The notes: generated by a model from the letters alone, not told the origin. A DNA stretch of 32,000 nt from an uncultured Chloroflexia bacterium (GCA_963718915.1 CAVRAI010000003.1:570001-602000); one strand, 5' to 3'; shown: positions 5,447-19,759, counted from the stretch's first letter. Made by a program: numbers and translations.

Positions 5447-5661
5447 CGGACGAGCGCGATCCACGCCTGACCCACGCCGACGGATGAACCGCCCGCAACA
5501 GCGGCGCGTTATCGGTCTCTCTCCCGGCGCCATTGTCCTGTTTTGCTGTCGCGCGCGCCGTCTCGGCGTGTATACTGCCCCTGGTATGATCCTGTCTGGG
5601 CGCGCCTATCGTCGTGTCCAGATACGACGGCATCTCCAGACGCAGTGGGGTAATCAGATAC

Positions 5662-6660
5662 ATGGTAGTGGACGACGAGACGCGGCAGATCATGTTCAGC
5701 GAGCTACGCCAGCGATTTGGAGCGGGCGTGGTTGGTCACGAGATGCTCTCGCGTCATGGCACCTTTGGTGTTGGCGGTCCAGCGGATGTCTGGCTGGCCA
5801 TCGAGCGAGAAGACATGCTCGTCGAACTGGCGGCGCTGGCCAACGACCGCCAGTGGCCGCTTATGCTCGTCGGCAATGGCACGAATGTTCTCTATGCCGA
5901 CGCGGGCGCGCGTGGCATCGTCGCCCGCATGCACAGCGCCGCCTGGCGCCTCGACGAGGTGGATGGCGAGCATACACTGCTCATCGCCGATGGCGGCGTT
6001 GATCTGCCAAAACTGGTCAATGCGCTGGCGGTCCAGGGGCTTGCCGGGCTGGAATGGGGCGCGGGTGTGCCTGGCACCGTCGGCGGCGCGGTGGTGAGCA
6101 ACGCGGGCGCCAATGGGTCATGCGTCGCCGATACGCTGAAGACGGCGCGCGTGCTCTTCACCGGCGAAGGTGTTGTACGCGAACTGCCTGCCGAGGAGTT
6201 GCGCCTTGCCTACCGTCACAGCCGCTTCCGGGCGGGACGGCGGATTGCGTTTGGCGACGATGGGCAGCCGGTGGCCGCGCCACGGGCATTGATCGAGCCA
6301 GCCGAGATGATTACCGGGGCGACGTTTCTGCTGACCCGCGACGATCCCGTCGCCGTCCGCGCGCGCGTCCAGCATCATCTGCGCTATCGCAAAGAGACTC
6401 AGCCGACACAGAAGAGCGCTGGCTCCGTCTTCAAGAACCCATTGCCCGAGTTTTCTGGTAGACTGATCGAGGCGGCTGGCCTGAAAGGTTACATGATCGG
6501 CAAGGCGCAAATCTCGCCCCGACACGCCAACTTCATCGTCAACGCGGGCGGCGCGACGGCGGCGGATGTTGTCGCGCTGATCGCGCTGGCCCGGCGCACG
6601 GTACGCGAGCAGTTTGATATCGAGCTTGAACTGGAAGTGGAGCTGCGCGGCGACTGGTAG
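5662..6660 (+). CDS. murB: UDP-N-acetylenolpyruvoylglucosamine reductase
   Basis: LSRHGTFGVGGPADVWLAIE...LMLVGNGTNVLYADAGARGIVARM (FAD-binding PCMH domain), then LAYRHSRF, SAGSVFKNP, GKAQISPRHANFIVN and a C-terminal LELEVEL. Collinear with MurB. The start could be 5614 (GTG), 5662 or 5692. Confidence 0.9.
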   Translation: MVVDDETRQIMFSELRQRFGAGVVGHEMLSRHGTFGVGGPADVWLAIEREDMLVELAALANDRQWPLMLVGNGTNVLYADAGARGIVARMHSAAWRLDEVDGEHTLLIADGGVDLPKLVNALAVQGLAGLEWGAGVPGTVGGAVVSNAGANGSCVADTLKTARVLFTGEGVVRELPAEELRLAYRHSRFRAGRRIAFGDDGQPVAAPRALIEPAEMITGATFLLTRDDPVAVRARVQHHLRYRKETQPTQKSAGSVFKNPLPEFSGRLIEAAGLKGYMIGKAQISPRHANFIVNAGGATAADVVALIALARRTVREQFDIELELEVELRGDW

Positions 6661-6690
6661 CGTTAGCTTGCCACTGGCCGCATGTCGATT

Positions 6691-6727
6691 GGAGATGGTT
6701 CGGAGATGGTTCGGAGATGGTTCGGAG
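6691..6727 (+). repeat. 11-bp tandem repeat GGAGATGGTTC x3.4 in the murB / next-gene spacer
   Basis: Read directly: ggagatggttc (6691-6701), ggagatggttc (6702-6712), ggagatggttc (6713-6723), then ggag... merging into the GGAGGG Shine-Dalgarno of the 6735 gene. Confidence 0.9.
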
Positions 6728-6734
6728 GGAAGCT

Positions 6735-7445
6735 ATGGCGAGTGCGCGGGTAGAGGCGCCATCGGTGGAGATGTCATTGCAGGCATTGCGTCGCCCGCTT
6801 GCCGATGGCGGGATGGCTGCTCCAGCGCTAGATGACGCGCTGGATCTGGTGCGAAGGGTTGGCGATGAGCCAGCGTATGCCACGCGCGTGCGTCAGGTAC
6901 TCGCACAGCCAGCTGGACTGGCGCAAGTGATTTTGGCTGCGGCGCCTCGTGTCGCTTCGGCGTGGGCGATAGCTGGGCTGATGGTGCTGACGGCGCTGGC
7001 CGGCCCGCTGCTCGCCTATGCTATCTTTGAAACGTCGTCGCAGACGGCGACCGCCATCGGCGATCCGTTCCAGGTGTACGCCGCGCAGCTTCCGGGCTGG
7101 GCTGGGCTGGCGGCGGGCATCGTCGGGACGGCGCTGTTGATCGTCTTTCTGCTGACGGTGACACGCTATCAGCGTCCCACGTTGCTCGGCCTGTTTGGTG
7201 GGCTGGCGGGTGGGATCGTCGAGGTCATAGCGGCGGTGCTGCCGTGGGTGGGCATCGTCGGGGCGAAGACGACCTGCGTGGCAGGCTCCGGCTGTACCGT
7301 TCAGGCGGGCGTTCCCGAACAAATTGGCCTTGTTGCCGCTCTCTGCTTCGCCATCCCTTTCGTGCTGGCGGTGACGGGCGTCTCAGGCACGCTGGCGCTG
7401 TGGCTTCAGCGGCGGCGCCTGCTGGCCGCGATTCGTAGCGCATAG
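6735..7445 (+). CDS. hypothetical integral membrane protein (about 4 TM helices)
   Basis: ORF 6717..7445. The ATG at 6735 is preceded by GGAGGG at a 5-nt spacing. Hydrophobic helices include AWAIAGLMVLTALAGPLLAYAI, LAAGIVGTALLIVFLLTV, LLGLFGGLAGGIVEVIAAVL and LVAALCFAIPFVLAVTGV. No family recognised. Confidence 0.55.
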   Translation: MASARVEAPSVEMSLQALRRPLADGGMAAPALDDALDLVRRVGDEPAYATRVRQVLAQPAGLAQVILAAAPRVASAWAIAGLMVLTALAGPLLAYAIFETSSQTATAIGDPFQVYAAQLPGWAGLAAGIVGTALLIVFLLTVTRYQRPTLLGLFGGLAGGIVEVIAAVLPWVGIVGAKTTCVAGSGCTVQAGVPEQIGLVAALCFAIPFVLAVTGVSGTLALWLQRRRLLAAIRSA

Positions 7446-7601
7446 CTCTCGTCGCAACGCCTGGAACGTTGCGCGCGTACGTAATGCAGACAGCGGAATC
7501 AGTCGAAACCAGCGCAGTCATGTAGATGCTGGATGTTGGCTATCAACGCAGCGTGGCAGATGCAACCCCTGTCACGCCTTGCGCGAGGAGGAATACGCGC
7601 C

Positions 7602-8333
7602 ATGCAGATGCAACCGTCGCAATCACCGCAACCATCGGCAACGCCTCAGCAGGAGGCCATGCGCGTGCTCCGCGAGCGTTACGAGCGCGGGGAAATCGCG
7701 TTCGAGACGTTCCAGCGCGGGCTTGATGCCCTCTTGCTTGCGCGGGATGCGGACGAGTGTCAGGCCATCATGAACGGCCTGCCGCAGTTGCCCACCAGTA
7801 AGGTCGATCAACTCGATGCCCTTTCGTCGCGGCCATCATCTTCCCCCGCGCCGTTCCGCCAGAGCGGACAGCCCCGCAGGCTGCTCGCATTCTTCAGCCA
7901 GGTGAAGCGCATGAATCACGCCTGGCGGCTGGATCCCAATACAACTGGCGGCGCGGTCTTCGGTCAGATGGATCTGGACCTCAATCTCGCGGCGCTCCCT
8001 TCACATGTCACCATGACGCTCTCTGCCGTCTTTGGCCAGGTCACCATCTACGTCCCCGCGACAGCGCAGGTGCGGGTGCGGGCCAGCGCATTGATGGGCG
8101 AGGTGAACATCTTCGGCGAGAGTTCGGGTGGCATCTTCGTCAGCGACGAGTCAACGTCCGAAAGCTCGACGCCCGGTCATCCTGAGACGACGATTGACCT
8201 CGACGTGCGGGCAGTCTTTGGCGAGGTGAAGGTCATCCACGGCGAGAATCCGTCGCTCTTCAAGAAGCTTGGCGCCATCGTGCGGCGCATGATCGCGGAG
8301 CCGGAGCCGGGCAGACTCTCGAATCCATCGTGA
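7602..8333 (+). CDS. SHOCT-like N-terminal motif plus LiaF-C/DUF2154-like beta-rich C-terminal domain protein
   Basis: ATG at 7602 with GAGGAGG 10 nt upstream. LRERYERGEIAFETFQRGLDALL matches the SHOCT motif pattern. The C-terminus (GGAVFGQMDLDLNLAALPSHVTMTLSAVFGQVTIYVPATAQVRVRASALMGEVNIFGE...VRAVFGEVKVI) has the repetitive GxVxI pattern seen in the LiaF C-terminal domain. Confidence 0.5.
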   Translation: MQMQPSQSPQPSATPQQEAMRVLRERYERGEIAFETFQRGLDALLLARDADECQAIMNGLPQLPTSKVDQLDALSSRPSSSPAPFRQSGQPRRLLAFFSQVKRMNHAWRLDPNTTGGAVFGQMDLDLNLAALPSHVTMTLSAVFGQVTIYVPATAQVRVRASALMGEVNIFGESSGGIFVSDESTSESSTPGHPETTIDLDVRAVFGEVKVIHGENPSLFKKLGAIVRRMIAEPEPGRLSNPS

Positions 8334-8420
8334 GCGAATTGAGAGGGTGACAGGGTGAACTTCGCGGCGCAGTATCGTTCTACATGTTAGGGGACGTGTG
8401 AGACTGGCTGGCGGCTGAAG

Positions 8421-8543
8421 CCGCGCCTAAGGGCTACGCCGCAAAGGCCGCCTGCGCGGCCTCGAATTGTGGCGATTCTGCTCTCTGGAGCCTGCGCAGG
8501 CAGGCTTTGTGGATGAGCGGAAGCGAGTCCCTTAGCCGCGCGT
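8421..8543. repeat. ~120-bp imperfect palindromic (long hairpin / MITE- or REP-like) element upstream of murC
   Basis: Outer arms are gcgcctaaggg (8423-8433) and cccttagccgcgc (8529-8541). Inner arms are ccgcaaaggccgcctgcgcggc (8439-8460) and gcctgcgcaggcaggctttgtgg (8490-8512), near reverse complements with a few mismatches. The centre is at ~8461-8489. Confidence 0.7.
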
Positions 8544-8589
8544 TCACGCGCTTGGCATCTGGCAATCTAGAGTGGGGAATAATGGCGTG

Positions 8590-10044
8590 ATGAATCCAGG
8601 CGAGTTGTTGAAGCTTTTTCCAGATGGGCTGCGCGGCAAGCGCATTCACGTGGTCGGCGCGGGCGGCAGTGGCGTCTCGTCGGTGCTGTTGCTGGCGCGC
8701 GAGCAGGGCGCGGTGGTCACCGGCTGTGATATCGCCCAGACGACCATGACGCGCGTGCTGGAACAGCAAGGCATCACTATCCAGTCTGGACACGACGTCG
8801 CCCACATTCATGATGTTGATCTGGTGGTGACCAATCCCGCCGTTACCCATCTCCATCCCGACCACATCGAGCTACGGGCCGCCGAGGCGGCGGGCATCCC
8901 GGTGACACAGTGGCAGCCGCTGCTTGGCTATCTGATGCGCCAGACGCCAGGTATCGCGATTGCTGGCGTGCACGGCAAAGGCTCGACAGGGGCGCTGCTG
9001 GGCGCGCTGGCCACCGCCGCTGGCCTCGACCCAACCGTGGAACTGGGCGCGGTCGTGCCTGAGTGGAAGGGCAACGTGCGCATAGGGCACGGCAATCTCT
9101 TCATCAACGAGGCGGATGAGTGGAACTATAACTTTCTCAATTACCATCCGCGCATGACTGTCCTGACCGCCGTGGAGTACGACCACCCGGAGTTCTTTCC
9201 GTCATACGATGTCATCCGCGACGCCTTCGTGCAGTTCCTGCATGGGATGGATACCACTGCCCGCCCCGATGCCTCCTTCGCGCCGATGGTCGTCTATAAC
9301 GACGATATCCCCGGCTGCCGCGATGTAATCGCGCGGCTAAGCGATATGCCGATTGCCACGCGCCCATTTAGCCTGGAGCGGCCCGATGCCGAGGCGGGCG
9401 CGGCGGATATGCGCGTCGATACCGAGACGAGCTTTACGCTGCTGTTGCATGGCGAAGCCCTGGGGCGGGTCACGCTGGCGACTCCCGGCCCCCACAACAT
9501 CGCCAACGCAGTGGCCGCCGCTGCTGCTGCCGATGCGCTGGGTATCGCGCCGGAGGTGATCGTGCGGGCGCTGACGGCCTTCCCCGGCGTGCGCCGCCGC
9601 TTCGAGATCATCGAGGATGGCGACGTGACCTTCATCGACGACTACGCCCACCATCCCCATGCGGTTGCGCTGACGGTGGCCACGGCGCGCAAACGCTTCC
9701 CCGGTCGGCGGCTGATCGCGGTCTTCCAGCCGACGCTCTTCACCCGTCTGCATCGCTTCCTGGAACCGTTCGCCGCCGCTTATGATGAGGCGGACGAGGC
9801 GGTGGTGGTGGAGATTCAGCCCTCACGCGAGCGCGACACCGGCCTGATTCATGGCAATGATCTGGTGAAGGCGATTGCCGCGCGTCCAGCCTGGCAGGGC
9901 CGCGCCTCCTCCATCCACTACGGCGGCAACTTCGACGAGACGGCGGCGCTGCTGCGTGCGATGCGCCAGCCTGGCGATGTTTACGTCATCATGGGGTCCG
10001 GCCCGGTTAACCGCGTGATCGCCCCCGCCCGCCTGCACGGCTAG
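8590..10044 (+). CDS. murC: UDP-N-acetylmuramate--L-alanine ligase
   Basis: GKRIHVVGAGGSGVSSVLLLAREQGAVVTGCD (Rossmann N-domain), IAIAGVHGKGSTGALL (Mur ligase P-loop), LTAVEYDHPEFF and DDYAHHPHAV. Collinear with MurC. An alternative GTG start lies at 8572. Confidence 0.9.
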   Translation: MNPGELLKLFPDGLRGKRIHVVGAGGSGVSSVLLLAREQGAVVTGCDIAQTTMTRVLEQQGITIQSGHDVAHIHDVDLVVTNPAVTHLHPDHIELRAAEAAGIPVTQWQPLLGYLMRQTPGIAIAGVHGKGSTGALLGALATAAGLDPTVELGAVVPEWKGNVRIGHGNLFINEADEWNYNFLNYHPRMTVLTAVEYDHPEFFPSYDVIRDAFVQFLHGMDTTARPDASFAPMVVYNDDIPGCRDVIARLSDMPIATRPFSLERPDAEAGAADMRVDTETSFTLLLHGEALGRVTLATPGPHNIANAVAAAAAADALGIAPEVIVRALTAFPGVRRRFEIIEDGDVTFIDDYAHHPHAVALTVATARKRFPGRRLIAVFQPTLFTRLHRFLEPFAAAYDEADEAVVVEIQPSRERDTGLIHGNDLVKAIAARPAWQGRASSIHYGGNFDETAALLRAMRQPGDVYVIMGSGPVNRVIAPARLHG

Positions 10045-10253
10045 GCGCGCCACCCGTTAATGGGTGATGGGCGCGTCGGACGGTCCTTCGCTCACTCGTC
10101 CCCACGAAGCCAGTCCGCCCTCACTGCTAAAATCGCCATTCATCGGATCGCTTTCGGCGTACGCAAAAATACCACTGTGTCTGTCTGCAAATCTCAGGTA
10201 TACTGCCCCTGGACACAGGCGAACACTGTGACGCACAGAGGAGGGATATCGCG

Positions 10254-10961
10254 ATGAATGGACATGCGCCGGGCCAGCCGCCGTTTCCACAGGCGTGGTG
10301 GGCTTTCGATCTGGGACGCTATCGTGGCTGCGACGGCACGTATTGCCGCTACGAATACGAGAGCCTGCCGCCGATACCGGCGGTGAGTGAGTCGCTCGAC
10401 TGGCTGGAGCCGCTGGATGAGCGCACCGACGCAAAGATGGCGATTCACCGCAATCCACCAGAAGCGCGCGGCGAGGTGGCAAAAATCGCGGAGTCGGCGG
10501 AGCGGCTGGGACTGACGCTGCCCGAATCGTTCATCCGGCTGATGAGCTCGACTGAGCTGCAGGACCGCATTCCCTCGTGTACCGCCTGCTACTTCAATCT
10601 CTCAGATGACATCATGCCTTGCCCCGGCAGTGACGGCGGCTACATCGTCCGCTTCTACTGCGACCAGCAGGACGTCCTGCTCTGGTACCTCTATCTCACG
10701 CCGCAGGGCGCGCAATACGTGCTCGTCACGCCTATCGAACTGGAGGAGATGGCGGCGAATACGCTCACCGACGAGGCTCGGCAGAGCATCCAGCGGAACA
10801 CGTGGGTCTGCGCGCCATCGTTCGCCGCCTTCATCTATCGCTGGTGGCTGGAAAACTCGCTCTGGTTCAAAGTCTCCGAATCAGATGACGAGGATAAGCT
10901 GACCGCAGACGAGCGCGCCTACCTCGCGCACTACAGCGCTGGTGGTGGCGCCAGCCAGTAG
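10254..10961 (+). CDS. hypothetical protein, possible SMI1/KNR4 (SUKH)-like fold
   Basis: ATG at 10254 preceded by GAGGAGGGA. The segment AESAERLGLTLPESFIRLMSS...RFYCDQQDVLLWYLYLTPQGAQYVLV resembles the 'LG..LPedy..fl ... dqqg...wyl' pattern of SMI1/KNR4 proteins. Pattern recognition only. Confidence 0.4.
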   Translation: MNGHAPGQPPFPQAWWAFDLGRYRGCDGTYCRYEYESLPPIPAVSESLDWLEPLDERTDAKMAIHRNPPEARGEVAKIAESAERLGLTLPESFIRLMSSTELQDRIPSCTACYFNLSDDIMPCPGSDGGYIVRFYCDQQDVLLWYLYLTPQGAQYVLVTPIELEEMAANTLTDEARQSIQRNTWVCAPSFAAFIYRWWLENSLWFKVSESDDEDKLTADERAYLAHYSAGGGASQ

Positions 10962-11161
10962 TCGTGCGCCATAACTCCCTATGCGCCTGGGAATATCTAC
11001 CCTTCCTTCTTTGCATTTCCAGTGCCGTCTGGTAGGATAATGCAATGGGGCGAAGCATGCTGGCGGCTCGGGATATATTTGGTAGCGCCGCCTAGGTGTA
11101 CCACCGCGAATCAGGCTGGCCGAGCTTCTTCATCTCTCCATCAGGAGGCTCTAAAGGACTT

Positions 11162-12004
11162 ATGATAAGACTACGATCACGTCTTGTGCTGCTGCTGGGG
11201 TGCCTTGTCGTCCTCGGCGTCATCATTTTGAGCGGCTGCAGCGGTACGGTGTCTACCACGAACCTGTCGCAGATCAAGCCGGTCGCGACGGTTCCCTATC
11301 TGCCGCCGACGGTGGTACCCAATACGCCCGTTGCCACGGCCACAGCCACGGCGACGGCGAAACCGCATCCGGCGAAGACACCTGTTCCATCTGGCCCACC
11401 AGCGCCGATTCCGACCGCGGGGTCATTACCTCCAGGCCCGATGCCCGCTGGTACCGTGCCCAATATTGGCGGCCAGCTCATCCTGGTCAGCCTCTCGCAA
11501 CAATGGCTCTTCGCCTTTCAGGATCATCGGCTGGTCTTCCGCACGGCGGTGACAACGGGCATGCCGCAGTTACCGACGCCAACCGGTACTTTCCATATCC
11601 AGTGGCACGAGCGCAATGTGACGTTCTACTCGCCGTGGCCGCTGGGGTCGCCCTATTATTACTCGCCGGAGCACATCAACTACGCCATGTATTTCCTGTA
11701 CAACGGCTACTACATCCACGACGCGCCCTGGCGACACGTCTTCGGCCCCGGCACGAATTATCCCCATACTGATCCTGACGGCACCCACGAGACGGGCAGC
11801 CATGGCTGTGTGAATGTGCCAACTGGGCCGATGTCATGGCTCTATAACTGGGCGCATGATGGCGCGACGGTCGTCATCTATGGCCATGCCGCCACCGGAC
11901 CCGCCCCGACACCAACGCCGACGAAGACGCCCGCGCCCGCACCGACGGCAACCGATACGCCTGTGCCTCCGCCAGCGCCAACCGACACGCCAACAACGCC
12001 GTAG
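11162..12004 (+). CDS. L,D-transpeptidase (YkuD domain) lipoprotein with PT-rich linkers
   Basis: ATG at 11162 after AGGAGG. The signal peptide carries a lipobox (LGVIILSGC). The YkuD core reads LILVSLSQQWLFAFQDHRLVFRTAVTTGMPQLPTPTGTF...YYIHDAPWR...GSHGCVNVP, with the catalytic HGC motif. Pro/Thr/Ala low-complexity regions lie at both ends. Confidence 0.85.
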   Translation: MIRLRSRLVLLLGCLVVLGVIILSGCSGTVSTTNLSQIKPVATVPYLPPTVVPNTPVATATATATAKPHPAKTPVPSGPPAPIPTAGSLPPGPMPAGTVPNIGGQLILVSLSQQWLFAFQDHRLVFRTAVTTGMPQLPTPTGTFHIQWHERNVTFYSPWPLGSPYYYSPEHINYAMYFLYNGYYIHDAPWRHVFGPGTNYPHTDPDGTHETGSHGCVNVPTGPMSWLYNWAHDGATVVIYGHAATGPAPTPTPTKTPAPAPTATDTPVPPPAPTDTPTTP

Positions 12005-12220: not shown

Positions 12221-13162
12221 TCAGTTGAGGCTGGCGCGCACCTCGCGTAGCTCCGCTATGCGCCGACGCAGCCGACCAACCTCCGGCGCGGCGGGGGCGC
12301 GTTCGGCGTAGGTGGCGATATCGGCGGCGGCAAGGAGTGGCTCGCCCAGCGCCAGCCGCAGCAGCCCGCGATCCCGTAGCTCTTCGGGCATATCAGGCCG
12401 CAGCAGCACCAGCCGCTCCACCACTTCGAGCGCGAGCCGACTCTCGCCACGGTGCAGATAGATTACTTTGAGGTTGTTCAGCATGCGGGTGAGGATGGCG
12501 CGAGCGCTCAGGGGAGCGCTCCAGCGCGGATCAAAATAAGGGAGCGCTCCAGTCGCGCCCATCAACTCAATGATGAAATGGCGGCATTCGTCGGCGTCGA
12601 GCAACTTGCCGCCATGAAAGGCATCCAGGTAGAGGTCGCCACCCTCCTCGCGTGGCAGCGGCCACTTGACCATGAAGTGTGACGGCAGCCCAACGCCGCG
12701 TAGCGGAATGCCAAGGCGGCGCGCGACCTCCAGGTAGATGACCGAGAGCGTGATCGGCAGGCCAACGCCACGGTCGAGCGTTTCATGCAAATAGGTGTTG
12801 CGCGGATCGTAATAGTCTTCAGTATTGCCGGATAGCCCCTCGTGATCCGCCAACGTCTCGCGCAGCGTCTCCAGCACGCGAGTCGCCATTGCACGTTCTC
12901 GAAGCGCACGGGAACGTCGCAGCCCCGCCGCAGTTGTGCCAAGCGCCTCACGCACTATCGTTGCCAGCGCATCCAGTCGCCGCTGATAGTGGGCGGCGTT
13001 CAGATCAGCATAGGCGATGTCAGCCATCATCAGCGCGCCCTGCGCCAGATCAAGCTGGGTATCAGGATGGGCGGCAAACGCGGCGAAGCGCAGCAGCGGT
13101 GTGAACGGTGTAGCATCCATGGGCAACTCATCTATCAGCGAAAATGATGGGATGGTTCGCAC
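12221..13162 (-). CDS. SirB1/YchA-like protein (transglutaminase-like N-domain + TPR-like C-domain, UPF0162)
   Basis: YYDPRNTYLHETLDRGVGLPITLSVIYLEVARRLGIPLRGVGLPSHFMVKW...LYLDAFHGG, and a C-terminal RLALEVVERLVLLRPDMPEELRDRGLLRLALGE. This parallels E. coli SirB1 (...PEDPYEIRDRGLIYAQL). The start could be the GTG at 13162 or the ATG at 13120. Confidence 0.7.
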   Translation of the reverse strand: MRTIPSFSLIDELPMDATPFTPLLRFAAFAAHPDTQLDLAQGALMMADIAYADLNAAHYQRRLDALATIVREALGTTAAGLRRSRALRERAMATRVLETLRETLADHEGLSGNTEDYYDPRNTYLHETLDRGVGLPITLSVIYLEVARRLGIPLRGVGLPSHFMVKWPLPREEGGDLYLDAFHGGKLLDADECRHFIIELMGATGALPYFDPRWSAPLSARAILTRMLNNLKVIYLHRGESRLALEVVERLVLLRPDMPEELRDRGLLRLALGEPLLAAADIATYAERAPAAPEVGRLRRRIAELREVRASLN

Positions 13163-13248: not shown

Positions 13249-14988
13249 TCATCGATGGGTGAGTTGTACGAGCGCGATGACGCAGAAGACGATGGCGAAA
13301 AGGCCGCCCAGCGCCAGCAGCGCGGCATAGATACCACGGGTGCGCGCCATGTAGCGCCGATAATAGGCGTCGGATGCCGTGGCAGGCTCGCGGAGACGCT
13401 GGCGCTCAGTGACGGTAAGCTCTGTCATCTCGGCCAGTCGCGTGGCAAGCGCCTTCTGCTCCAGCGCGAAATGGTCGTTGCGGGCGCGCAGCAGAAACGC
13501 GATGACAAACGCGATGTAGCCGCTATACAGGATGGCCGCCAGCAACGCCAGCAGCGGCGAGATGGCGGGCTGGATCAGGCCAGCGATGACCACTGCCGTC
13601 AGCAACCCCACCGTCCGGTAGACGTTATCCACCACATCGCCTGTGAGATCGCCGACCGCTTTACGCACCGTTTCCGCGTAGTCCGCCACGGCATTCTGCG
13701 CGGTCTGGCGCGCGGCGAAGTAGCGGTCGGTCTGGCCGCGCACGAAAAGCGTAAAGTTGGCTTTGGCCGCCTCCAGCGCATCCACCGCCGCCCGCGCCAC
13801 CTCGGCCAGCGATACCGCGTGACCTGGCGGCAGCTCGCGCGCCAGACACTCACGCGCGATGATGAGCGTGTCGACGGCGCCGCGCCGCGTGGCCCAGTCC
13901 GCCAGTCGCGCCAGCGTCTCTCCCGCAGCCGCCGATGGGAGCGCCTCATCGCCCGTAGTGGGGAGCGTACAGGTCGCGGGACGCACCCCGGCAAACCGCA
14001 GCGCCAGCCCATCCGTCAATCTGCCCTGCACGACGCTGGCGAGCGCGGTCGCCGCCAGCTCCGCCCGTAGGAGCGCCAGCTGCGCCGCTGTTGCCTCCAG
14101 ACCGGGAGCGCGGGCAACCAGCCGCAGCGTCTCCGCCGTCAGAATCTGTGGCGCGTCGGGCCAGCCACCCTCCTCGGCGAGCAAACGCCGTGACGCCTGC
14201 GCGCGGCTGACGAACTGGCGGAACGCGGCGGGTGAGACTTGCAGCCAATCGGGCACGTTGGGGCTCGACGCTCCCACGCATTCGAGCGCGGCGCCCGCCA
14301 GATAGCCTGGTGTGTCGCAGAGCAGCACGCAGGTTCGGCCATCGGCGCGAATCAGCCCCGACTGTTCCAAATAGGGGATCCCGGCGAGGCTGATGAGTTG
14401 ATTCCAGGCGGCGGCGGTATAGAAGACCGCGACCATCGCCGGAGCCGCGACGCCAGGTCGTTGCATCATGATGTCCCGCGCCAGCGTGAGCGCGTGTGTC
14501 TTGCCGAAGGAGAGCCGCGCCTCGACGCTGAGTGCGTCCCCCTGTGTCTCCGCCGCCGATTGCGCCGCCGCCTGAAATGTCCGTAACGCGCCAGCGGGAT
14601 CGCTCCCCGCACGCAGGGAGGCCGCCACGGCGGGCATATCGGGGTCCAGCCCATCCAGCCGCAGATCGAGCGCAAGGTCATCGGCCAGCGTGGCGAACCA
14701 TCGCCCAGCCTCGTCGCTATCACTGTGGACCAGGTGTTCGACAGTCAGCCGGGCAACCACCTCCAGCCGTTCGAGCGCCTCGCCCTCGGCCAGCCGCGCC
14801 TGGGAGATGTTGAACGCCACGCCAATATCGGCGATGACCTCGTAGAGATGCTGCAACTGAGCGAGATGCGAATCAGGATACGGCGCGGGACGCCCGACTG
14901 CGCCATCTGTCGCCACGTCGGTTGTGTCTGGCAGGGCTGGGCGGGTACGCTGGCTCGTGGTCTGGCTGGTGCGGTTCGGTCTGCTCAT
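13249..14988 (-). CDS. hypothetical 579-aa protein: ~430-aa Ala/Leu-rich soluble region of unknown fold plus 3 C-terminal TM helices; translationally coupled to the upstream NA37-like gene
   Basis: ORF 13249..15558 was trimmed to the ATG at 14988-14986. That ATG overlaps the upstream stop (minus strand cgATGAgc) and has GAGGGGG 8-9 nt upstream. The protein starts MSRPNRTSQTTSQR. TM helices: VGLLTAVVIAGLIQPAI, LLALLAAILYSGYIAFVIAFLL and IYAALLALGGLFAIVFCVIALV. I recognise no catalytic or family motif. Confidence 0.65.
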   Translation of the reverse strand: MSRPNRTSQTTSQRTRPALPDTTDVATDGAVGRPAPYPDSHLAQLQHLYEVIADIGVAFNISQARLAEGEALERLEVVARLTVEHLVHSDSDEAGRWFATLADDLALDLRLDGLDPDMPAVAASLRAGSDPAGALRTFQAAAQSAAETQGDALSVEARLSFGKTHALTLARDIMMQRPGVAAPAMVAVFYTAAAWNQLISLAGIPYLEQSGLIRADGRTCVLLCDTPGYLAGAALECVGASSPNVPDWLQVSPAAFRQFVSRAQASRRLLAEEGGWPDAPQILTAETLRLVARAPGLEATAAQLALLRAELAATALASVVQGRLTDGLALRFAGVRPATCTLPTTGDEALPSAAAGETLARLADWATRRGAVDTLIIARECLARELPPGHAVSLAEVARAAVDALEAAKANFTLFVRGQTDRYFAARQTAQNAVADYAETVRKAVGDLTGDVVDNVYRTVGLLTAVVIAGLIQPAISPLLALLAAILYSGYIAFVIAFLLRARNDHFALEQKALATRLAEMTELTVTERQRLREPATASDAYYRRYMARTRGIYAALLALGGLFAIVFCVIALVQLTHR

Positions 14989-16169
14989 CGGCCAGCCCCC
15001 TCTTTGAGCGTCAGTGTCTCGATGGTCAGGCGGATTTTGCCGCCGACGCGCTGGTCCTCCACCCGTGCCATGGCGGCGAAGCGCTCTGCCGGGACAATCA
15101 GCCGGGCGCCGCCGTCCAATTCCAGCGTCACCGTCTGCACGATGGGATCGGCGGTGGGGCGATCCACCGTGAAGTGGGTCTGGTGTGGCTCGAACGCGGC
15201 GTCGAAGATACTCTGTGTGAGTGTGGAAAGCAGATCGGCGGCCAGCGCGCCATTGCCCGGCAACGCGGCCAGCGCGAACGCGGGCAGATCGAGCGTCTCG
15301 TCCGCGAGGGCCGCTCGTCGCGCCTCGTAGACGTGGAGTAGCGTGTGCGGCGAGAGGGAAGCGCCGCGATCCGCCAGCCAGTCGTCGGTCGCGCGGAGAA
15401 AGAGCCGGGTGCGCCGCCGGGCCGACGGCAGAATCTGGGTGGTGAGGAAGCCGCGATAGAAGTAGGCGGCGACGCCCTCGGAGCGGATGTTGGCCTGGGT
15501 GTCGAGCAGAACCAGCGCGAATCCGGCGCCGTCCGCTGAGGGAGTAATCAGCGCGCATTTCTGTTTCTGGCGCACGGTCTCGGGCATCAGGTTATCGGCC
15601 AGCGCGATGCGCACCAGCCGCCGCCCGCGCTCCGTCGAGAAATTGCGCACCAGCCGGGCGTCTGGGTCGAGCTTGAAGAGCGCGATGCACGACATCGGCA
15701 AGCCCGGCGCGGTATAGATGGCGACGACGAAATCGCCCGGGTTGATCTGATTCGGGCGCTGCCGCATCTGCGCGAAGAGACGACGCGCCATCTCGTGCGA
15801 GACCGCGACGAACGCGGATGGCTCGCCAAGTAGTCTGGCGCAGAGGTCAGGCATGGTCGGCGTAGCAGCCTGTTCGGCGAGGAAGCGCGCCTGCCAGTCG
15901 GCGTTTTCGAGCGCCTGGGCAATGTAGTTGGCAAAGAGCGCATGGATGGTCGCATCCAGCGCCAACTCCGCCTCAACCAGCAGCAGGGCGCCTGTGCGGT
16001 TATCCAGATGATGCAGAATCAGCCGCTCGATGGTGATCGCGGTAGCGCGCGTCGGCAGCGCGACGACCGGTGGGGCGGCTGGCTGCGCCACCTCGGCGAT
16101 ATCGGGCGCCCGGAACGCCTGCCCGCGCTCGGCAATGTGCGCCGCGCCAGTTCTGCTGAGTCTGCCCAT
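14985..16169 (-). CDS. NA37 family (YejK/NdpA-like) nucleoid-associated DNA-binding protein homologue, with a ~45-aa N-terminal extension
   Basis: ORF 14985..16475 was trimmed to the ATG at 16169, with GAGGAGGTG 6-8 nt upstream. ITIERLILHHLDNRTG..LLLVE, GDFVVAIYTAPG..MSCIALFKLDP, KQKCALITPSADGAGFALVLLDTQ....VAAYFYRGFLTTQIL, RRRTRLFLRATDDWL and the C-terminal IRLTIETLTLK follow the order and character of E. coli YejK motifs (IALHQL.., GGIVLFCHY..YLLVAVL, YLTFLKG..VADFFMDFLG, TLTIKG) as recalled from memory. Confidence 0.65.
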   Translation of the reverse strand: MGRLSRTGAAHIAERGQAFRAPDIAEVAQPAAPPVVALPTRATAITIERLILHHLDNRTGALLLVEAELALDATIHALFANYIAQALENADWQARFLAEQAATPTMPDLCARLLGEPSAFVAVSHEMARRLFAQMRQRPNQINPGDFVVAIYTAPGLPMSCIALFKLDPDARLVRNFSTERGRRLVRIALADNLMPETVRQKQKCALITPSADGAGFALVLLDTQANIRSEGVAAYFYRGFLTTQILPSARRRTRLFLRATDDWLADRGASLSPHTLLHVYEARRAALADETLDLPAFALAALPGNGALAADLLSTLTQSIFDAAFEPHQTHFTVDRPTADPIVQTVTLELDGGARLIVPAERFAAMARVEDQRVGGKIRLTIETLTLKEGAGR

Positions 16170-16402
16170 CGTCCGCACCTCCTCGGAGACGCCGCCTGTC
16201 TCTCTCAATCCTCTCCATTGTACACCTATCAATTCTCTGGGCGGTTGCCTGATATGGTACTCTAGGGTACCCTTCGCCGCCTGCCGCATCACCAATGCGT
16301 ACTCCAGGTAAGAGCATGAGCGGTGGGATTCTTTTGTGGCTCTCGTTACCTGGTTTTGAGCGTCTCGTTCTCTCCTTGTGAGCGGAGGAAACTCTGCATT
16401 CG

Positions 16403-16422
16403 AGAGATACCCAGAGATACCC
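16403..16422 (+). repeat. direct 10-bp repeat AGAGATACCC x2 (plus a degenerate third copy AGAGGGATAC at 16434-16443) in a low-GC divergent intergenic region
   Basis: Read directly: cgAGAGATACCCAGAGATACCCatggatgtttgAGAGGGATACgcg. Located 28-47 nt upstream of the GTG at 16450. Confidence 0.8.
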
Positions 16423-16449
16423 ATGGATGTTTGAGAGGGATACGCGCAG

Positions 16450-16851
16450 GTGGCTTTTCTCGTGACCGAATACACACTCGTTTTCCGCCGGATCGGTGGG
16501 CGACGCCGAGACTTCTCGCGGCCCTATAACGGCTGGACGCTTGCCCGGCCCGGGCTGGCGCAGCTGATGCTGGACGCCGCGACGCCCGACACCGACACCG
16601 ACACCGTCAACGGTCGGCAAAGCGGCGAGATCGCCCATGTGGTGGTCGTGCCGCTCTGCTCTACCCTCGCGCTAGAGCCACTTGCCTACGAGCATTTTCT
16701 GGTGGCGAGCGGGGTGCTGCCGCATTCGCTGCGCCTGCTGGCGCATGTCCGCCTGACCGACACGCACGCGGTCGAAACGGTACGTCGGCGAATTCAGTCG
16801 CTGGTGATGGCGGCTGAGGTACAGGCGATCATCGAGGGGCTATCGGCCTGA
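16450..16851 (+). CDS. small hypothetical protein (133 aa from GTG 16450; alternative ATG at 16567)
   Basis: Hand-counted third-position GC is ~80% over the whole frame, versus a ~50% GC non-coding stretch immediately upstream, so this frame is probably translated. An in-frame stop lies at 16432. The 3' end overlaps the convergent helicase gene by 23 nt. Contains a DTDTDT hexanucleotide repeat. No family recognised with confidence. Confidence 0.45.
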   Translation: MAFLVTEYTLVFRRIGGRRRDFSRPYNGWTLARPGLAQLMLDAATPDTDTDTVNGRQSGEIAHVVVVPLCSTLALEPLAYEHFLVASGVLPHSLRLLAHVRLTDTHAVETVRRRIQSLVMAAEVQAIIEGLSA

Positions 16852-19759
16852 CCGTCTCCTGCTGGGCGCTGCTGCTCCGCGCCGGAATGATTCCGCCATG
16901 GCCATCGTAGAGCGATGCGCAGTACGCCACCAGCCGTCGTAACAGGGGGACTTCTTCGAGCGCGGCGCGATTGCCCAGGATGATAAGCTTGTGCCGCGCC
17001 CGTGTCAGCGCCACATTCAGTCGGTTCGGGTCCGCCAGGAAGTCTGGCCCGCGCCCGCCCCATGTTGCCGCGCCCCCACCGCCAAAGCTGTAGAAGATGA
17101 CCGACCGCTCGCCTCCCTGGAAGCGATCTACCGTATCCACCAGCACATCGGTCTCGCCACCTGCCACCAGCCGCGCGCGAATAGCGCCCACCTGCGCCCG
17201 ATACGGCGCGATCACGCCAATGTCGTGCGCCGCGACGCCCAACCGGCGCAGCTCGCGCACCAGATTGCGCACCAGGATCGCCTGCGCCTGATTCTCCTTA
17301 TGCCCGCGCTCGTCCGGTCCCAACGGCACGTCGATGAAGACGACTGGATGCGCCGGATCGAGGACTCGCCCGAAAGTCCCCACTGCGGCCTCGCTCAGCG
17401 CTAACCGCGCGGTACGCGCTGATCCCTCCGCAACCAGGGTGTCGCCGTAGAATTCACCGCTGGGGAAGGCGCAGATGACGGGGTGCATCCGATACTGGCG
17501 CCGCAGGGGGACGCTGGCCTCCGCACCACAACGCTCTAGCAGCGTGGCAAAGAGCGAGCGTTTCAAGCCACGAGCAGCCGCCGTCTCGCTTCGCACCAGT
17601 GGCGGAAGCTGGCGATCATCCCCGACCAGCACAAAGCGCCGCGCGAATCGGAGCGCGCCGAGCGTCGTGGGCAGCGTTAGCTGGGTCGCTTCGTCCAGGA
17701 TGGCCAGATCGAAGAGCAGTGGCTCGCCAATATCATCATAGCTCTCGGATGACCATGTGGCCGTCGTCGCGGCCACCAGCGGCGCGGTACGCAGCGTCTC
17801 GCGGATGCGCCCCGGCGTCAGTTCGGCGCCTTCTCCGGCCAGCGCCCGTGCCCGCGTCACCAGCCGATGCCCTTGTATCTCTGGCGCGACGCTTAGCTCG
17901 TGGCCCAGCCGCACAAAATCATCCCAGCCATCAGCCAGCAACCGTCGCAGGACGGTATCCACCGCCTGATTGGTAAACGCGCCGATCAGTACTCGCTCGC
18001 CGCGTTGCATCGCTCGCCGGGCAATCTCGGCGACAACACTCGTCTTGCCGGTACCCGGCGGCCCCTGAATCAGCAGATAGTCGCGGGCGGCCAGCGCGCG
18101 GGCAACTGCCTGCCGCTGCTCGGTATTGAGGCTGGCGGGCAATGTCTCCTGTATCGCTGCCTCGGCGGACTCGTCGAAGGTGGGCGCGATGGCGCCGCGG
18201 ACCAGCTCGCGCAGGTGGGGCGCGCCACGTAGCCAGCGCCAGAGATTGCGCACGGTGCGATCATGCACGATATCGCTCTCGTAGCGGTCAAGCAGAGTGG
18301 GGTTGGCGATGCGCTCCGGCGTCCAGACGACGACACGTTGCGCCTCGATGCGCAGAATCGTCCCGCTGACCACCGCGCCGCGCACGGGATCGCCCTCGCT
18401 CACCAGCACGGCGTCGCCCTCGCGGAGATCGGAGCCTTGCGCGCCTTCGAGGGTATATTCCCACTCGCCCTTCGCGGTCTGGCGCGGTTCGCCCACCAGC
18501 CTGAGGTCGCCCAGCGCCACACCACGCCGCATCCGCTCAGCGGGTGTCGCTCGCCAGAGCGCGCTGCCATCGACTTCAGCGGCGCGCGCCTCCTGCCGCA
18601 GCAGATCGTACATCTCGGCGAACATCGTGGCGTCTTCCTGGTCAACCGGCTCCAGCACGTCGGGCAGGTCAGGTGGCTGCCAGCCAAGCAACGCCGAGGC
18701 GCGCAGGCAATCCTGCCGCACCATGCAGCGCGCGCACTTCAGCGCGGATGGCGGCGGGGGTACCGCGCCGGTCGCGTGGACGAGCGCCAGCGCGTTGCGT
18801 AGCTCCATCACTCGTTGCAGATCGCGATGGACGAAGGGGATCCTGTAGGTGTCTGCGCGACCGGGCGTTCCACTATAGAGCAGCGTCGCGCCGGGGCCAT
18901 CCTGCCGTCCCGGAAAGCGGGCGGCCAACAGCGTCTGGTAGCCATGCACCTGCCAGCGATGCTCGCGTTTGGGCAGCGACGCGCGCACGTTGCCGGTCTT
19001 CAGTTCAAGCAGTGACCCGCCGTGGGGATCCTGCAACAAGACATCGAGCCGCCCCTTCAGGCCAACCTCCGGCGCCAGGAGAAACGTCTCGGCGCGGATG
19101 TCGGGAGCGGTGCGCCAGAGATTCTGGCGGCTCTGGGCGTACCATGCGGCCAGCGCGCGTATATGGGGCGCGGCCTCAGCGGCCATCTCCCCCTCGCCGA
19201 TTTGTCGCAGCGCCAGCTCAACCTGCGCCGCGTCCAGGGCACGCTGAAGATAGACCTCGATAGGTTCGTTGCCGCCCTTGAGCAGCTCTTTAAACGCGGT
19301 ATGCACCAGCGTCCCACGCAGCGAGGCCGCGCTTGGCGGTGAGGGCGCCATACGGCGTAGCGGATACTGGCGCACGCAGTACTCGGCGTTGTTGATATCG
19401 GTAATGTTGAGCAGCAGGTCGGGTTCCAGCACGATCACGCCCGCTGGCAGCAGCCGCAACGTCTCGGGAGTAGCTGTGCGGGCGAGATGATGGACGCACA
19501 CACGCAACCCGCGCCAGCGATCTGGCGGATAGGCCGATAATTCGCGCCAGAGGGCGCGTCCCTGCTCCTCGCAACGCACATGTATGGTCTCGCCGCGTTC
19601 ATCGCGCAGCGTCAGTTCCAACTGGCGCAACCTGGGGTCAAATGCCGCGTCGCACAGTTCGCCGGAAACGCTGGCCACGTCACAGGGGGTCGCGCGCTCC
19701 ATCTCCCATGGGCAGAGAAAGCAGCTCTGCGCGCTATTCGTAGACTTGTCTGCTGCCAT
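16829..19759 (-). CDS. Dna2-like bifunctional protein: N-terminal Cas4/RecB-type PD-(D/E)xK nuclease with a 4-Cys Fe-S cluster, fused to an Upf1/Dna2-type SF1B helicase
   Basis: Nuclease motifs: AEYCVRQY (Cys1), GRLDVLL...LLELKTG (D...ExK), QVHGYQTLL (QhxxY) and CARCMVRQDC (CxxCx5C). Helicase motifs: LIQGPPGTGKTS (I), AILDEATQL (II), VLVGDDRQLPP (III), RQYRMHPVI (IV), VIAPYRAQV, VDTVDRFQGGERSVIF (V) and NVALTRARHKLIILG (VI). A ~115-aa Cys-containing N-terminal extension (CFLCPWEMERATPCD) has unknown function. Confidence 0.85.
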   Translation of the reverse strand: MAADKSTNSAQSCFLCPWEMERATPCDVASVSGELCDAAFDPRLRQLELTLRDERGETIHVRCEEQGRALWRELSAYPPDRWRGLRVCVHHLARTATPETLRLLPAGVIVLEPDLLLNITDINNAEYCVRQYPLRRMAPSPPSAASLRGTLVHTAFKELLKGGNEPIEVYLQRALDAAQVELALRQIGEGEMAAEAAPHIRALAAWYAQSRQNLWRTAPDIRAETFLLAPEVGLKGRLDVLLQDPHGGSLLELKTGNVRASLPKREHRWQVHGYQTLLAARFPGRQDGPGATLLYSGTPGRADTYRIPFVHRDLQRVMELRNALALVHATGAVPPPPSALKCARCMVRQDCLRASALLGWQPPDLPDVLEPVDQEDATMFAEMYDLLRQEARAAEVDGSALWRATPAERMRRGVALGDLRLVGEPRQTAKGEWEYTLEGAQGSDLREGDAVLVSEGDPVRGAVVSGTILRIEAQRVVVWTPERIANPTLLDRYESDIVHDRTVRNLWRWLRGAPHLRELVRGAIAPTFDESAEAAIQETLPASLNTEQRQAVARALAARDYLLIQGPPGTGKTSVVAEIARRAMQRGERVLIGAFTNQAVDTVLRRLLADGWDDFVRLGHELSVAPEIQGHRLVTRARALAGEGAELTPGRIRETLRTAPLVAATTATWSSESYDDIGEPLLFDLAILDEATQLTLPTTLGALRFARRFVLVGDDRQLPPLVRSETAAARGLKRSLFATLLERCGAEASVPLRRQYRMHPVICAFPSGEFYGDTLVAEGSARTARLALSEAAVGTFGRVLDPAHPVVFIDVPLGPDERGHKENQAQAILVRNLVRELRRLGVAAHDIGVIAPYRAQVGAIRARLVAGGETDVLVDTVDRFQGGERSVIFYSFGGGGAATWGGRGPDFLADPNRLNVALTRARHKLIILGNRAALEEVPLLRRLVAYCASLYDGHGGIIPARSSSAQQETVRPIAPR

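Follow-up and report, generated by a model that had tools for sequence, protein, structure and literature searches.

The systems that come closest to the locus described here are the PANGU operons, bicistronic units in which a YejK-like nucleoid-associated protein (NAP) is encoded together with an effector (Li et al., 2026, bioRxiv 10.64898/2026.04.06.716658). The criterion used there for a NAP operon is a NAP gene and a non-NAP partner gene with no more than 40 bp between them, and 47% of YejK-like genes are in operons; ten effector clusters have been published and further types are predicted, especially outside defense islands (Li et al., 2026). The background rates of defense linkage given there are 4.2% for stand-alone NAPs and 8.2% for NAP operons. 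In type II PANGU the NAP, Pag2A, is paired with Pag2B, which has an N-terminal acidic 'DMK' domain and a C-terminal transmembrane (TM) domain. The DMK domain binds the NAP with a dissociation constant (KD) of 19 nM, both genes are required, the outcome is abortive infection, and the NAP departs from the nucleoid upon T4 infection (Li et al., 2026). A second pair, DS-1 ('D390') from Escherichia coli, consists of WP_000355468.1 (NA37) and WP_000150292.1 (404 amino acids, aa) and was validated as anti-phage by DefensePredictor (PMC13092281). YejK is a dimeric clamp with a basic pore that binds DNA without sequence specificity (PMC11229321). Here we compare with these systems a pair of genes located in a 32,000-nucleotide (nt) stretch of DNA from an uncultured Chloroflexia bacterium (GCA_963718915.1 CAVRAI010000003.1:570001-602000; termed the window, with positions counted from its first letter), in which a gene for an NA37/YejK-family protein (gene 1) is followed by a gene for a membrane-anchored protein from an unannotated family (gene 2).

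A first interpretation of this DNA, made by a model from the sequence alone (the sequence-only reading), knew of no described system of such a composition. This is no longer the case because type II PANGU and DS-1, both of which match it and both of which are anti-phage in E. coli, were described in 2025-2026 reports. We propose that the pair is an effector-family variant of the NAP-sensor/membrane-effector (PANGU-like) modules, a reading to which we give an even chance of being correct.

The NA37 gene and its membrane-anchored partner

Our analysis establishes to which family gene 1 belongs, how gene 2 is built (with a confident fold), that the two are translationally coupled and that their pairing is obligate across a deep family. 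The features of the pair are as follows.

14985-16169, minus strand: gene 1, 394 aa, an NA37/YejK-family nucleoid-associated protein
15018-16040, minus strand: NA37-like region of gene 1, residues ~44-384 (Pfam, phrog_1974)
16176-16184, minus strand: Shine-Dalgarno sequence GAGGAGGTG of gene 1, 7 nt ahead of its ATG and invariant in a six-locus alignment
13249-14988, minus strand: gene 2, 579 aa, the membrane-anchored partner from an unannotated family
14996-15002, minus strand: Shine-Dalgarno sequence GAGGGGG of gene 2, within gene 1, with a GGAGG-like element at the same place in related loci
14985-14988, minus strand: ATGA overlap of the gene 1 stop and the gene 2 start, an RTGA version of which is found in 20 of 20 loci

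The assignment of gene 1 to the NA37/YejK family, first made in the sequence-only reading, is borne out by three models. The protein matches Pfam NA37 (PF04245) with 73.5 bits (E=2.6e-20; gathering threshold 24.6 bits), with residues 51-268 corresponding to positions 1-212 of the 325 in the profile, and its orthologs in loci L016 and L018 are above the threshold too, the match of the latter extending to profile position 286. The NA37-like PHROG phrog_1974, which is of unknown function, covers residues 44-384 (E=1.1e-25), and a profile of 15 gene-1 orthologs finds the YejK crystal structure 9be2 (E=4.4e-4), over residues 5-250 only. The N-terminal extension of about 45 aa that had also been noticed is real, in that residues 1-50 precede the NA37 match and form a low-complexity segment that is poorly conserved among orthologs. 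The protein as a whole is near-neutral (pI, isoelectric point, of 7.1). A GTG at 16475 was considered as an alternative start that would give a protein of 496 aa, and it was rejected because the position of the Shine-Dalgarno sequence, a dip in GC content and the onset of conservation all agree on a start at 16169.

Both minus-strand open reading frames (ORFs) had been placed in the sequence-only reading with exact coordinates, and the ATGA overlap, the GAGGGGG element inside gene 1 and the strong Shine-Dalgarno sequence of gene 1 were located where it said. The 4-nt RTGA junction and the GGAGG-like element that precedes it are present in all 20 loci that contain both genes (the Ktedonobacterales genome loci together with L022-L024), a recurrence that makes this a coupling signal above chance. 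The gene-2 homologs, moreover, always adjoin an NA37 gene. It lies immediately 5' of the gene-2 homolog, overlapping or abutting it, in 34 of the 34 loci for which upstream DNA is available, comprising the 20 Ktedonobacterales loci, six of six distant loci and eight of eight metagenome loci. Since the NA37 gene is upstream in 34/34 and the RTGA junction is present in 20/20, the NA37 gene and gene 2 form an ancient, obligate, translationally coupled unit. In L022, from a contig of 788 kb, the NA37 gene is split into two called ORFs of 328 and 49 aa at 8872-10004, which suggests a frameshift or a sequencing error just ahead of the junction with the gene-2 homolog.

The AlphaFold2 model of gene 2, calculated from a 30-sequence alignment, is confident (pLDDT 87, pTM 0.73) and, together with the alignments and hydropathy, divides the protein into six parts.

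Residues 1-39, minus strand: disordered segment (AlphaFold2 model)
13810-14871, minus strand: soluble alpha/beta region, residues 40-393, net charge -12, pI 5.0
Residues 394-456, minus strand: stalk helix, part of a 79-residue AlphaFold2 helix (394-472) with a hydrophobic end
13483-13620, minus strand: TM1-TM2 helical hairpin, residues ~457-502 (alignments, hydropathy)
Residues 503-549, minus strand: Arg-rich cytoplasmic helix between TM2 and TM3
13255-13341, minus strand: TM3, the third hydrophobic helix, residues ~550-578 (AlphaFold2 model, hydropathy)

The helix 394-472 is followed in the model by helices at 478-520 and 526-578, and the hydropathy profile has hydrophobic segments at ~457-473, 478-502 and 550-578 with about 455 aa of soluble protein before them, in keeping with the long soluble region and three C-terminal TM helices of the sequence-only reading. 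An N-in topology fits this arrangement, because the segment between TM2 and TM3 is Arg-rich, and the loops outside the membrane are only ~5 residues long in this lineage according to the model. The most conserved stretch across the family is the TM1-TM2 hairpin together with the DLTGDVVDNVYRTVG motif just before it, as seen in the alignments A1, A2 and A5.

Gene 2 carries a net negative charge on its soluble region (-12 to -14, pI about 5.0), as do its relatives throughout the family (median -15.5, pI about 5.1), and residues 40-393 are a candidate NA37-binding domain, with which the net acidity is compatible, not diagnostic. Few polar residues are invariant in this region across the family, and for this reason enzymatic activity is unlikely and we favor a putative role as a binding or sensor domain. 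As the sequence-only reading had indicated, gene 2 is not recognizable as a member of any family in Pfam, NCBIfam, PADLOC or PHROGs, and it has no fold match in PDB or BFVD. Sequence searches of PDB were empty, Foldseek searches of the model against PDB and BFVD gave nothing at E<=0.001, and an exact look-up of the window protein returned no record. The top Foldseek matches, to Y-family polymerase little-finger domains and de novo helical bundles, have E>=0.04 and a query-normalized TM-score of 0.1, and Pfam matches to HrpA_pilin and PHO4 (E about 0.09) are below the cut-off and were treated as noise.

The gene-2 family was defined by the profiles A1, A2 (a diverse alignment) and A5 (a subgroup), of which A5 was used for scanning loci as A2 is too diverse for that purpose; a word-indexed search with A2 gave only relatives of its first sequence. 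A word-indexed search for relatives of gene 2 identified 97 close ones, and those that are named are all from Ktedonobacterales metagenome-assembled genomes (MAGs). An exhaustive profile search (E<=1e-3) gave 445 clusters at 50% identity, the representatives of which have Lys/Arg ratios from 0.16 to 0.83, and therefore their hosts are very different in GC content. Between the close and distant tiers the homology extends from end to end (hhalign probability 100%, E=4e-63), and divergent members share only about 20% identity. The family is characterized by a soluble region of ~420-460 aa with the motifs D-x2-G-x3-G-x-L-x-[IV]-x-G and DKL-x-I-x-R, a juxtamembrane motif [DN]-x-Y-[KR]-T-x-G before the TM hairpin, a third TM helix and an NA37 gene upstream, and gene 2 conforms to this definition.

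Two further observations concern the family. In one subfamily (17 representatives, alignment A6; P0146, P0149, P0157 and P0165; for example L025, 8001-10007), the third TM helix is followed by an additional conserved, Cys-containing domain of ~130 aa, which has no match in Pfam and is probably extracytoplasmic by the predicted topology. In addition, a contig from a MAG labeled 'Proteobacteria bacterium' (JAJPIU010000192.1; loci L008/L023) carries a pair of the Ktedonobacterales type that is 48% identical to that of the window, and it is probably mis-binned or mis-classified.

Proposed function and genomic setting

How the pair might act is suggested by the described systems. Translational coupling would set the proteins of gene 1 and gene 2 in fixed proportion, and the NA37 dimer would sit on DNA while the chromosome is intact. 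Degradation of the DNA or heavy damage to it, as caused by phage nucleases for instance, would release NA37, which, once freed, would bind the acidic cytoplasmic alpha/beta region of gene 2, whence the signal would pass through the stalk helix and the conserved juxtamembrane motif to the three-helix membrane domain. The membrane domain would then compromise the membrane or arrest growth and so bring about abortive infection. We infer the interaction of the two proteins, the trigger and the membrane-damaging activity by analogy.

The PANGU-like reading is supported by the NA37 identity of gene 1, the obligate pairing, the layout that gene 2 shares with the DS-1 effector and the scarcity of invariant polar residues in the soluble region. 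It is also supported because the validated type II PANGU and DS-1 systems share its composition and gene order, because distant relatives of the pair adjoin Hma, GmrSD or toxin-antitoxin genes, and because Li et al. (2026) predict NAP-operon types outside of defense islands. One distant member is directly 3' of an Hma system (HmaB/HmaC; HmaC E=4e-121) and in another a split GmrSD type IV restriction enzyme, accompanied by a PDC-S31 candidate, is encoded 1 kb away. A defense gene is within 10 kb of two (L029 and L030) of the six distant members looked up; a further member is beside PIN and PhdYeFM toxin-antitoxin genes, and those remaining have metabolic or SMC contexts.

Several results weigh against this reading. 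PADLOC, which the sequence-only reading proposed to run on the contig, found no system within 10 kb of the pair in the window and gave only the partial helicase-core similarity of a neighboring 976-aa protein. The genes near the pair are instead concerned with housekeeping and the cell envelope (MurB, Mur ligase, an L,D-transpeptidase (YkuD) and a LiaF-like protein), and the pairs of the Ktedonobacterales relatives have neighborhoods of the same kind. When the pairwise identities of gene 1, gene 2 and the helicase are compared as matrices, they correlate with r about 0.97, and by this measure the locus is vertically inherited in the Ktedonobacterales, unlike mobile defense islands; no member of the gene-2 family was found among plasmids or IMG/VR viral contigs. 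An acidity such as that of the gene-2 soluble region (pI about 5, 11-12% Asp+Glu) is common among cytoplasmic proteins and does not prove that the region mimics DNA. We infer DNA binding by gene 1 from its family membership, because the alignment shows no conservation at R173, R176 and K177, the pore residues that were mutated in YejK; they fall opposite non-basic positions, with the basic stretches YFYRGF and SARRRTR next to these. Finally, the gene-2 profiles do not detect the DS-1 effector as represented by A3, a 28-sequence profile. With hhalign, A1 gave a probability of 0.1% and A2 one of 13.8% (score 35.2), compared with 10.2% (33.8) for the reversed A3. The A2-A3 match, which has 260 colinear columns that place DKLxIxR on ERxSVMR and align the TM hairpins, was rejected as homology because the reversed-sequence control scored the same.

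The main rival, which we consider less likely, is that the pair is a housekeeping nucleoid-membrane tether, in which NA37 clamps the DNA and gene 2 anchors it constitutively with no killing step, a role that in the filamentous, spore-forming Ktedonobacteria could concern chromosome positioning or segregation or the coordination of envelope growth. The conserved chromosomal context next to MurB, Mur ligase, L,D-transpeptidase and LiaF-like genes would suit such a role, as would the distant locus L023, where a Mur ligase and an alanine racemase are near the pair, and the inheritance together with the flanking helicase. So would the single copy per locus and the lack of mobile-element hallmarks, as well as of tRNA genes or Rfam matches when the window was scanned for them, and a 1:1 translational coupling is what a stoichiometric structural complex would call for; an SMC gene also adjoins one distant member. 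Against a tether, distant members are in defense islands (Hma, GmrSD/PDC-S31) or near toxin-antitoxin genes, and wherever an NA37 protein and its membrane-anchored partner have been tested experimentally, the system is anti-phage. That the named homologs come only from uncultured MAGs suggests a patchy rather than an order-wide distribution, and conservation within gene 2 is highest in the juxtamembrane/TM module, as would be expected of an active membrane device more than of a passive anchor.

The sequence-only reading had offered the same two roles, an abortive-infection-like pair or a DNA-membrane tether. Of this, the conserved coupled module stands and the two of six distant members near defense genes favor the former role, while the housekeeping locus in the Ktedonobacterales does not. 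A conserved core-genome locus without a defense-island association, which it regarded as an argument against defense, is indeed what is found in the Ktedonobacterales, but not in the two distant members near Hma and GmrSD.

The window also contains the following features upstream of the pair.

16217-16224, minus strand: TGTACAAT, an extended -10-like element ~45 nt 5' of the gene-1 start (six-locus alignment)
16450-16851, plus strand: divergent gene of 133 aa, conserved at the protein level in 15 loci
16829-19759, minus strand: PD-(D/E)XK (Cas4/Dna2-like) nuclease fused to an SF1B (Upf1/IGHMBP2-like) helicase, 976 aa (Pfam)

The nuclease-helicase is 5' of the pair in 13 Ktedonobacterales loci and is 52-63% identical across distant Ktedonobacterales. 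It raises what we consider the very unlikely possibility of a three-component DNA surveillance system, composed of the nuclease-helicase, NA37 and gene 2, and possibly the 133-aa ORF, that would function in Hachiman-like defense or in repair. In its support, the helicase is retained in the 13 loci despite differences in the other flanking genes, its core resembles those of defense helicases (MkoA, DpdJ, Hhe and the PLuB helicase-like model), and the conserved 133-aa ORF accompanies the helicase as well as the pair. Nevertheless, L008/L023, L019 and L022 have no copy of the helicase within 8-10 kb, nor does any of the six distant loci carry it, and in L016 and L018 it is separated from the NA37 gene by an insertion of unrelated hydrolase and BNR-repeat genes. 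Gene 1, moreover, is preceded by a conserved promoter-like region of its own and is separated from the helicase by a convergent gene. The helicase is also far below the curated cut-off of every named system, with 309 bits against the 999 required by the NCBIfam PLuB helicase-like model, and it matches Mokosh MkoA over the helicase core only. The nuclease-helicase is a frequent, dispensable neighbor that is probably outside the module.

The 133-aa ORF shares 23 nt with the 3' end of the helicase gene and has tblastn matches in 15 related loci at 41-91% identity, including the helicase-less L022 and L023. It accompanies the NA37 pair in L022/L023, where the helicase is absent, and the helicase in L016/L018, where insertions are present. 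It has no family match in Pfam or NCBIfam and is possibly an accessory or regulatory gene, or merely an ancestral neighbor. The sequence-only reading had taken a stretch of 660 bp as intergenic and had overlooked this conserved gene inside it, and with the gene at 16450-16851 the real promoter region is therefore only ~280 bp. The low-GC, promoter-like nature of the region ahead of gene 1 was correctly noted, as GC content at 16170-16450 is down to 51-58%, compared with 63-78% in the flanks, and TGTACAAT is conserved within it. In the six-locus alignment TGTACAAT is preceded by conserved GGGTACC/GAGTACC direct repeats at ~16255-16275, and together they are a candidate promoter and operator. 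A simple sigma-70 consensus scan of the low-GC stretch before gene 1 gave no promoter match, nor did simple sigma-70 and terminator scans around the operon give anything meaningful. The locus L007 has three copies of the GGGTACC/GAGTACC repeat. Just 5' of the 133-aa ORF, at 16403-16445, is a tandem 10-nt repeat, AGAGATACCC, in two exact copies and a degenerate third, which is present as a single copy in the close relatives L002 and L003.

The least probable of the explanations we considered is that of a regulatory or signaling pair, in which a membrane sensor would sequester the DNA binder to control gene expression in an anti-sigma-like manner. A large cytoplasmic domain in fixed proportion to a DNA binder does resemble sequestration switches, and NdpA2, an NA37 protein, is reported to regulate the transfer of an integrative and conjugative element (ICE) in Pseudomonas (PMC8565334). 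Such a pair is difficult to reconcile with the non-specific, clamp-like binding of DNA by YejK (PMC11229321), with a gene 2 that in this lineage is almost without an extracytoplasmic sensor domain, its loops being of ~5 residues, and with a neighborhood in which no target genes are conserved.

On the 3' side, a Transglut_core2/TPR_9 gene (12221-13162, minus strand) begins 86 nt beyond gene 2 on the same strand and may be co-transcribed with it. It is probably outside of the module because it is retained only in the close relatives L001-L004 and L009. The envelope gene cluster farther downstream (5614-12004: MurB, LiaF-like, Mur ligase and YkuD) has Pro/Thr/Ala-rich low-complexity linkers in YkuD. 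Other genes of the window encode a CoA-transferase, a major facilitator superfamily (MFS) transporter, an extracytoplasmic function (ECF) sigma factor with its anti-sigma factor, a TetR regulator, HlyD and the transglutaminase-like/TPR protein.

A more far-reaching proposal, which we regard as improbable and put forward as speculation, is that the Ktedonobacterales pair has ceased to be part of accessory phage defense and is a lineage-fixed device that connects genome integrity to the membrane. NA37, freed from damaged or degraded DNA, would engage gene 2 and so cause the programmed death or dormancy of single cells of a multicellular filament, and gene 2 would represent a new NA37-gated effector family (the 445 clusters) that has a fold of its own, is present in many phyla and is unrelated to the Pag2B and DS-1 effectors. 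The gene-2 family is large, structurally confident, always paired with NA37 and unannotated in databases, and as it is mostly outside of defense islands it is hidden from guilt-by-association searches. The pair offers a natural test of whether NAP-membrane modules can become domesticated as part of core chromosome biology, and, as it is fixed in the chromosome much like a core locus, the question of effector versus tether is experimentally tractable.

Comparison with known systems

With YejK (9be2), gene 1 shares its Pfam family, and the profile of gene-1 orthologs finds the YejK structure. YejK is a stand-alone protein, however, whereas gene 1 is always coupled to a membrane partner, and YejK is very acidic (the authors' overall value is 4.4) in contrast to the pI of 7.1 of gene 1. 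The resemblance to type I PANGU (the NAP Pag1A with Pag1B, a GRel toxSAS) lies in the use of the NAP as a sensor that binds a domain of its partner, the Pag1A-Pag1B complex being a 2:1 heterotrimer (Li et al., 2026). The effector of type I is a soluble alarmone synthetase, whereas gene 2 is without a RelA/SpoT-like or other enzymatic domain.

The likeness to DS-1 is closer. In DS-1 the NA37 gene is followed 2 nt later by the gene for a membrane-anchored partner, and the AlphaFold2 models of gene 2 and of the DS-1 effector (pLDDT 84.6) are laid out alike, in that an N-terminal alpha/beta region leads through a long stalk helix into a TM hairpin, after which come a cytoplasmic helix and the third TM helix. 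The soluble region is net-acidic in both proteins. The two systems differ in that the DS-1 NAP has an N-terminal zinc ribbon while gene 1 has an unconserved low-complexity extension, and BLASTP does not align the two NAPs. Members of the DS-1 effector family are enterobacterial/gammaproteobacterial. With no detectable homology at the profile level, gene 2 appears to be an effector family separate from that of the E. coli DS-1 partner.

As in type II PANGU, two genes make up the operon, the YejK-like NAP comes first, and its partner has a net-acidic, cytoplasmic N-terminal region and C-terminal TM helices. The 4-nt overlap, which is the same in 20 of 20 relatives, is well within the limit of 40 bp for PANGU operons, and gene 2 has a TM domain and a net-negative soluble region of modest acidity, a candidate counterpart of the DMK domain. 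As compared by description, gene 2 is mildly acidic (pI 5.0) while Pag2B is a highly acidic DNA mimic. Gene 2 is also 579 aa in length, without a match in the libraries searched, and the window pair is not within 10 kb of recognized defense genes. The host of the pair, moreover, belongs to the Chloroflexota (Ktedonobacterales), outside the phyla listed by Li et al. (2026). If the PANGU-like reading is correct, then gene 2 would be at least the eleventh effector family for the modular NAP-sensor immune systems, and it would extend these modules to the Chloroflexota.

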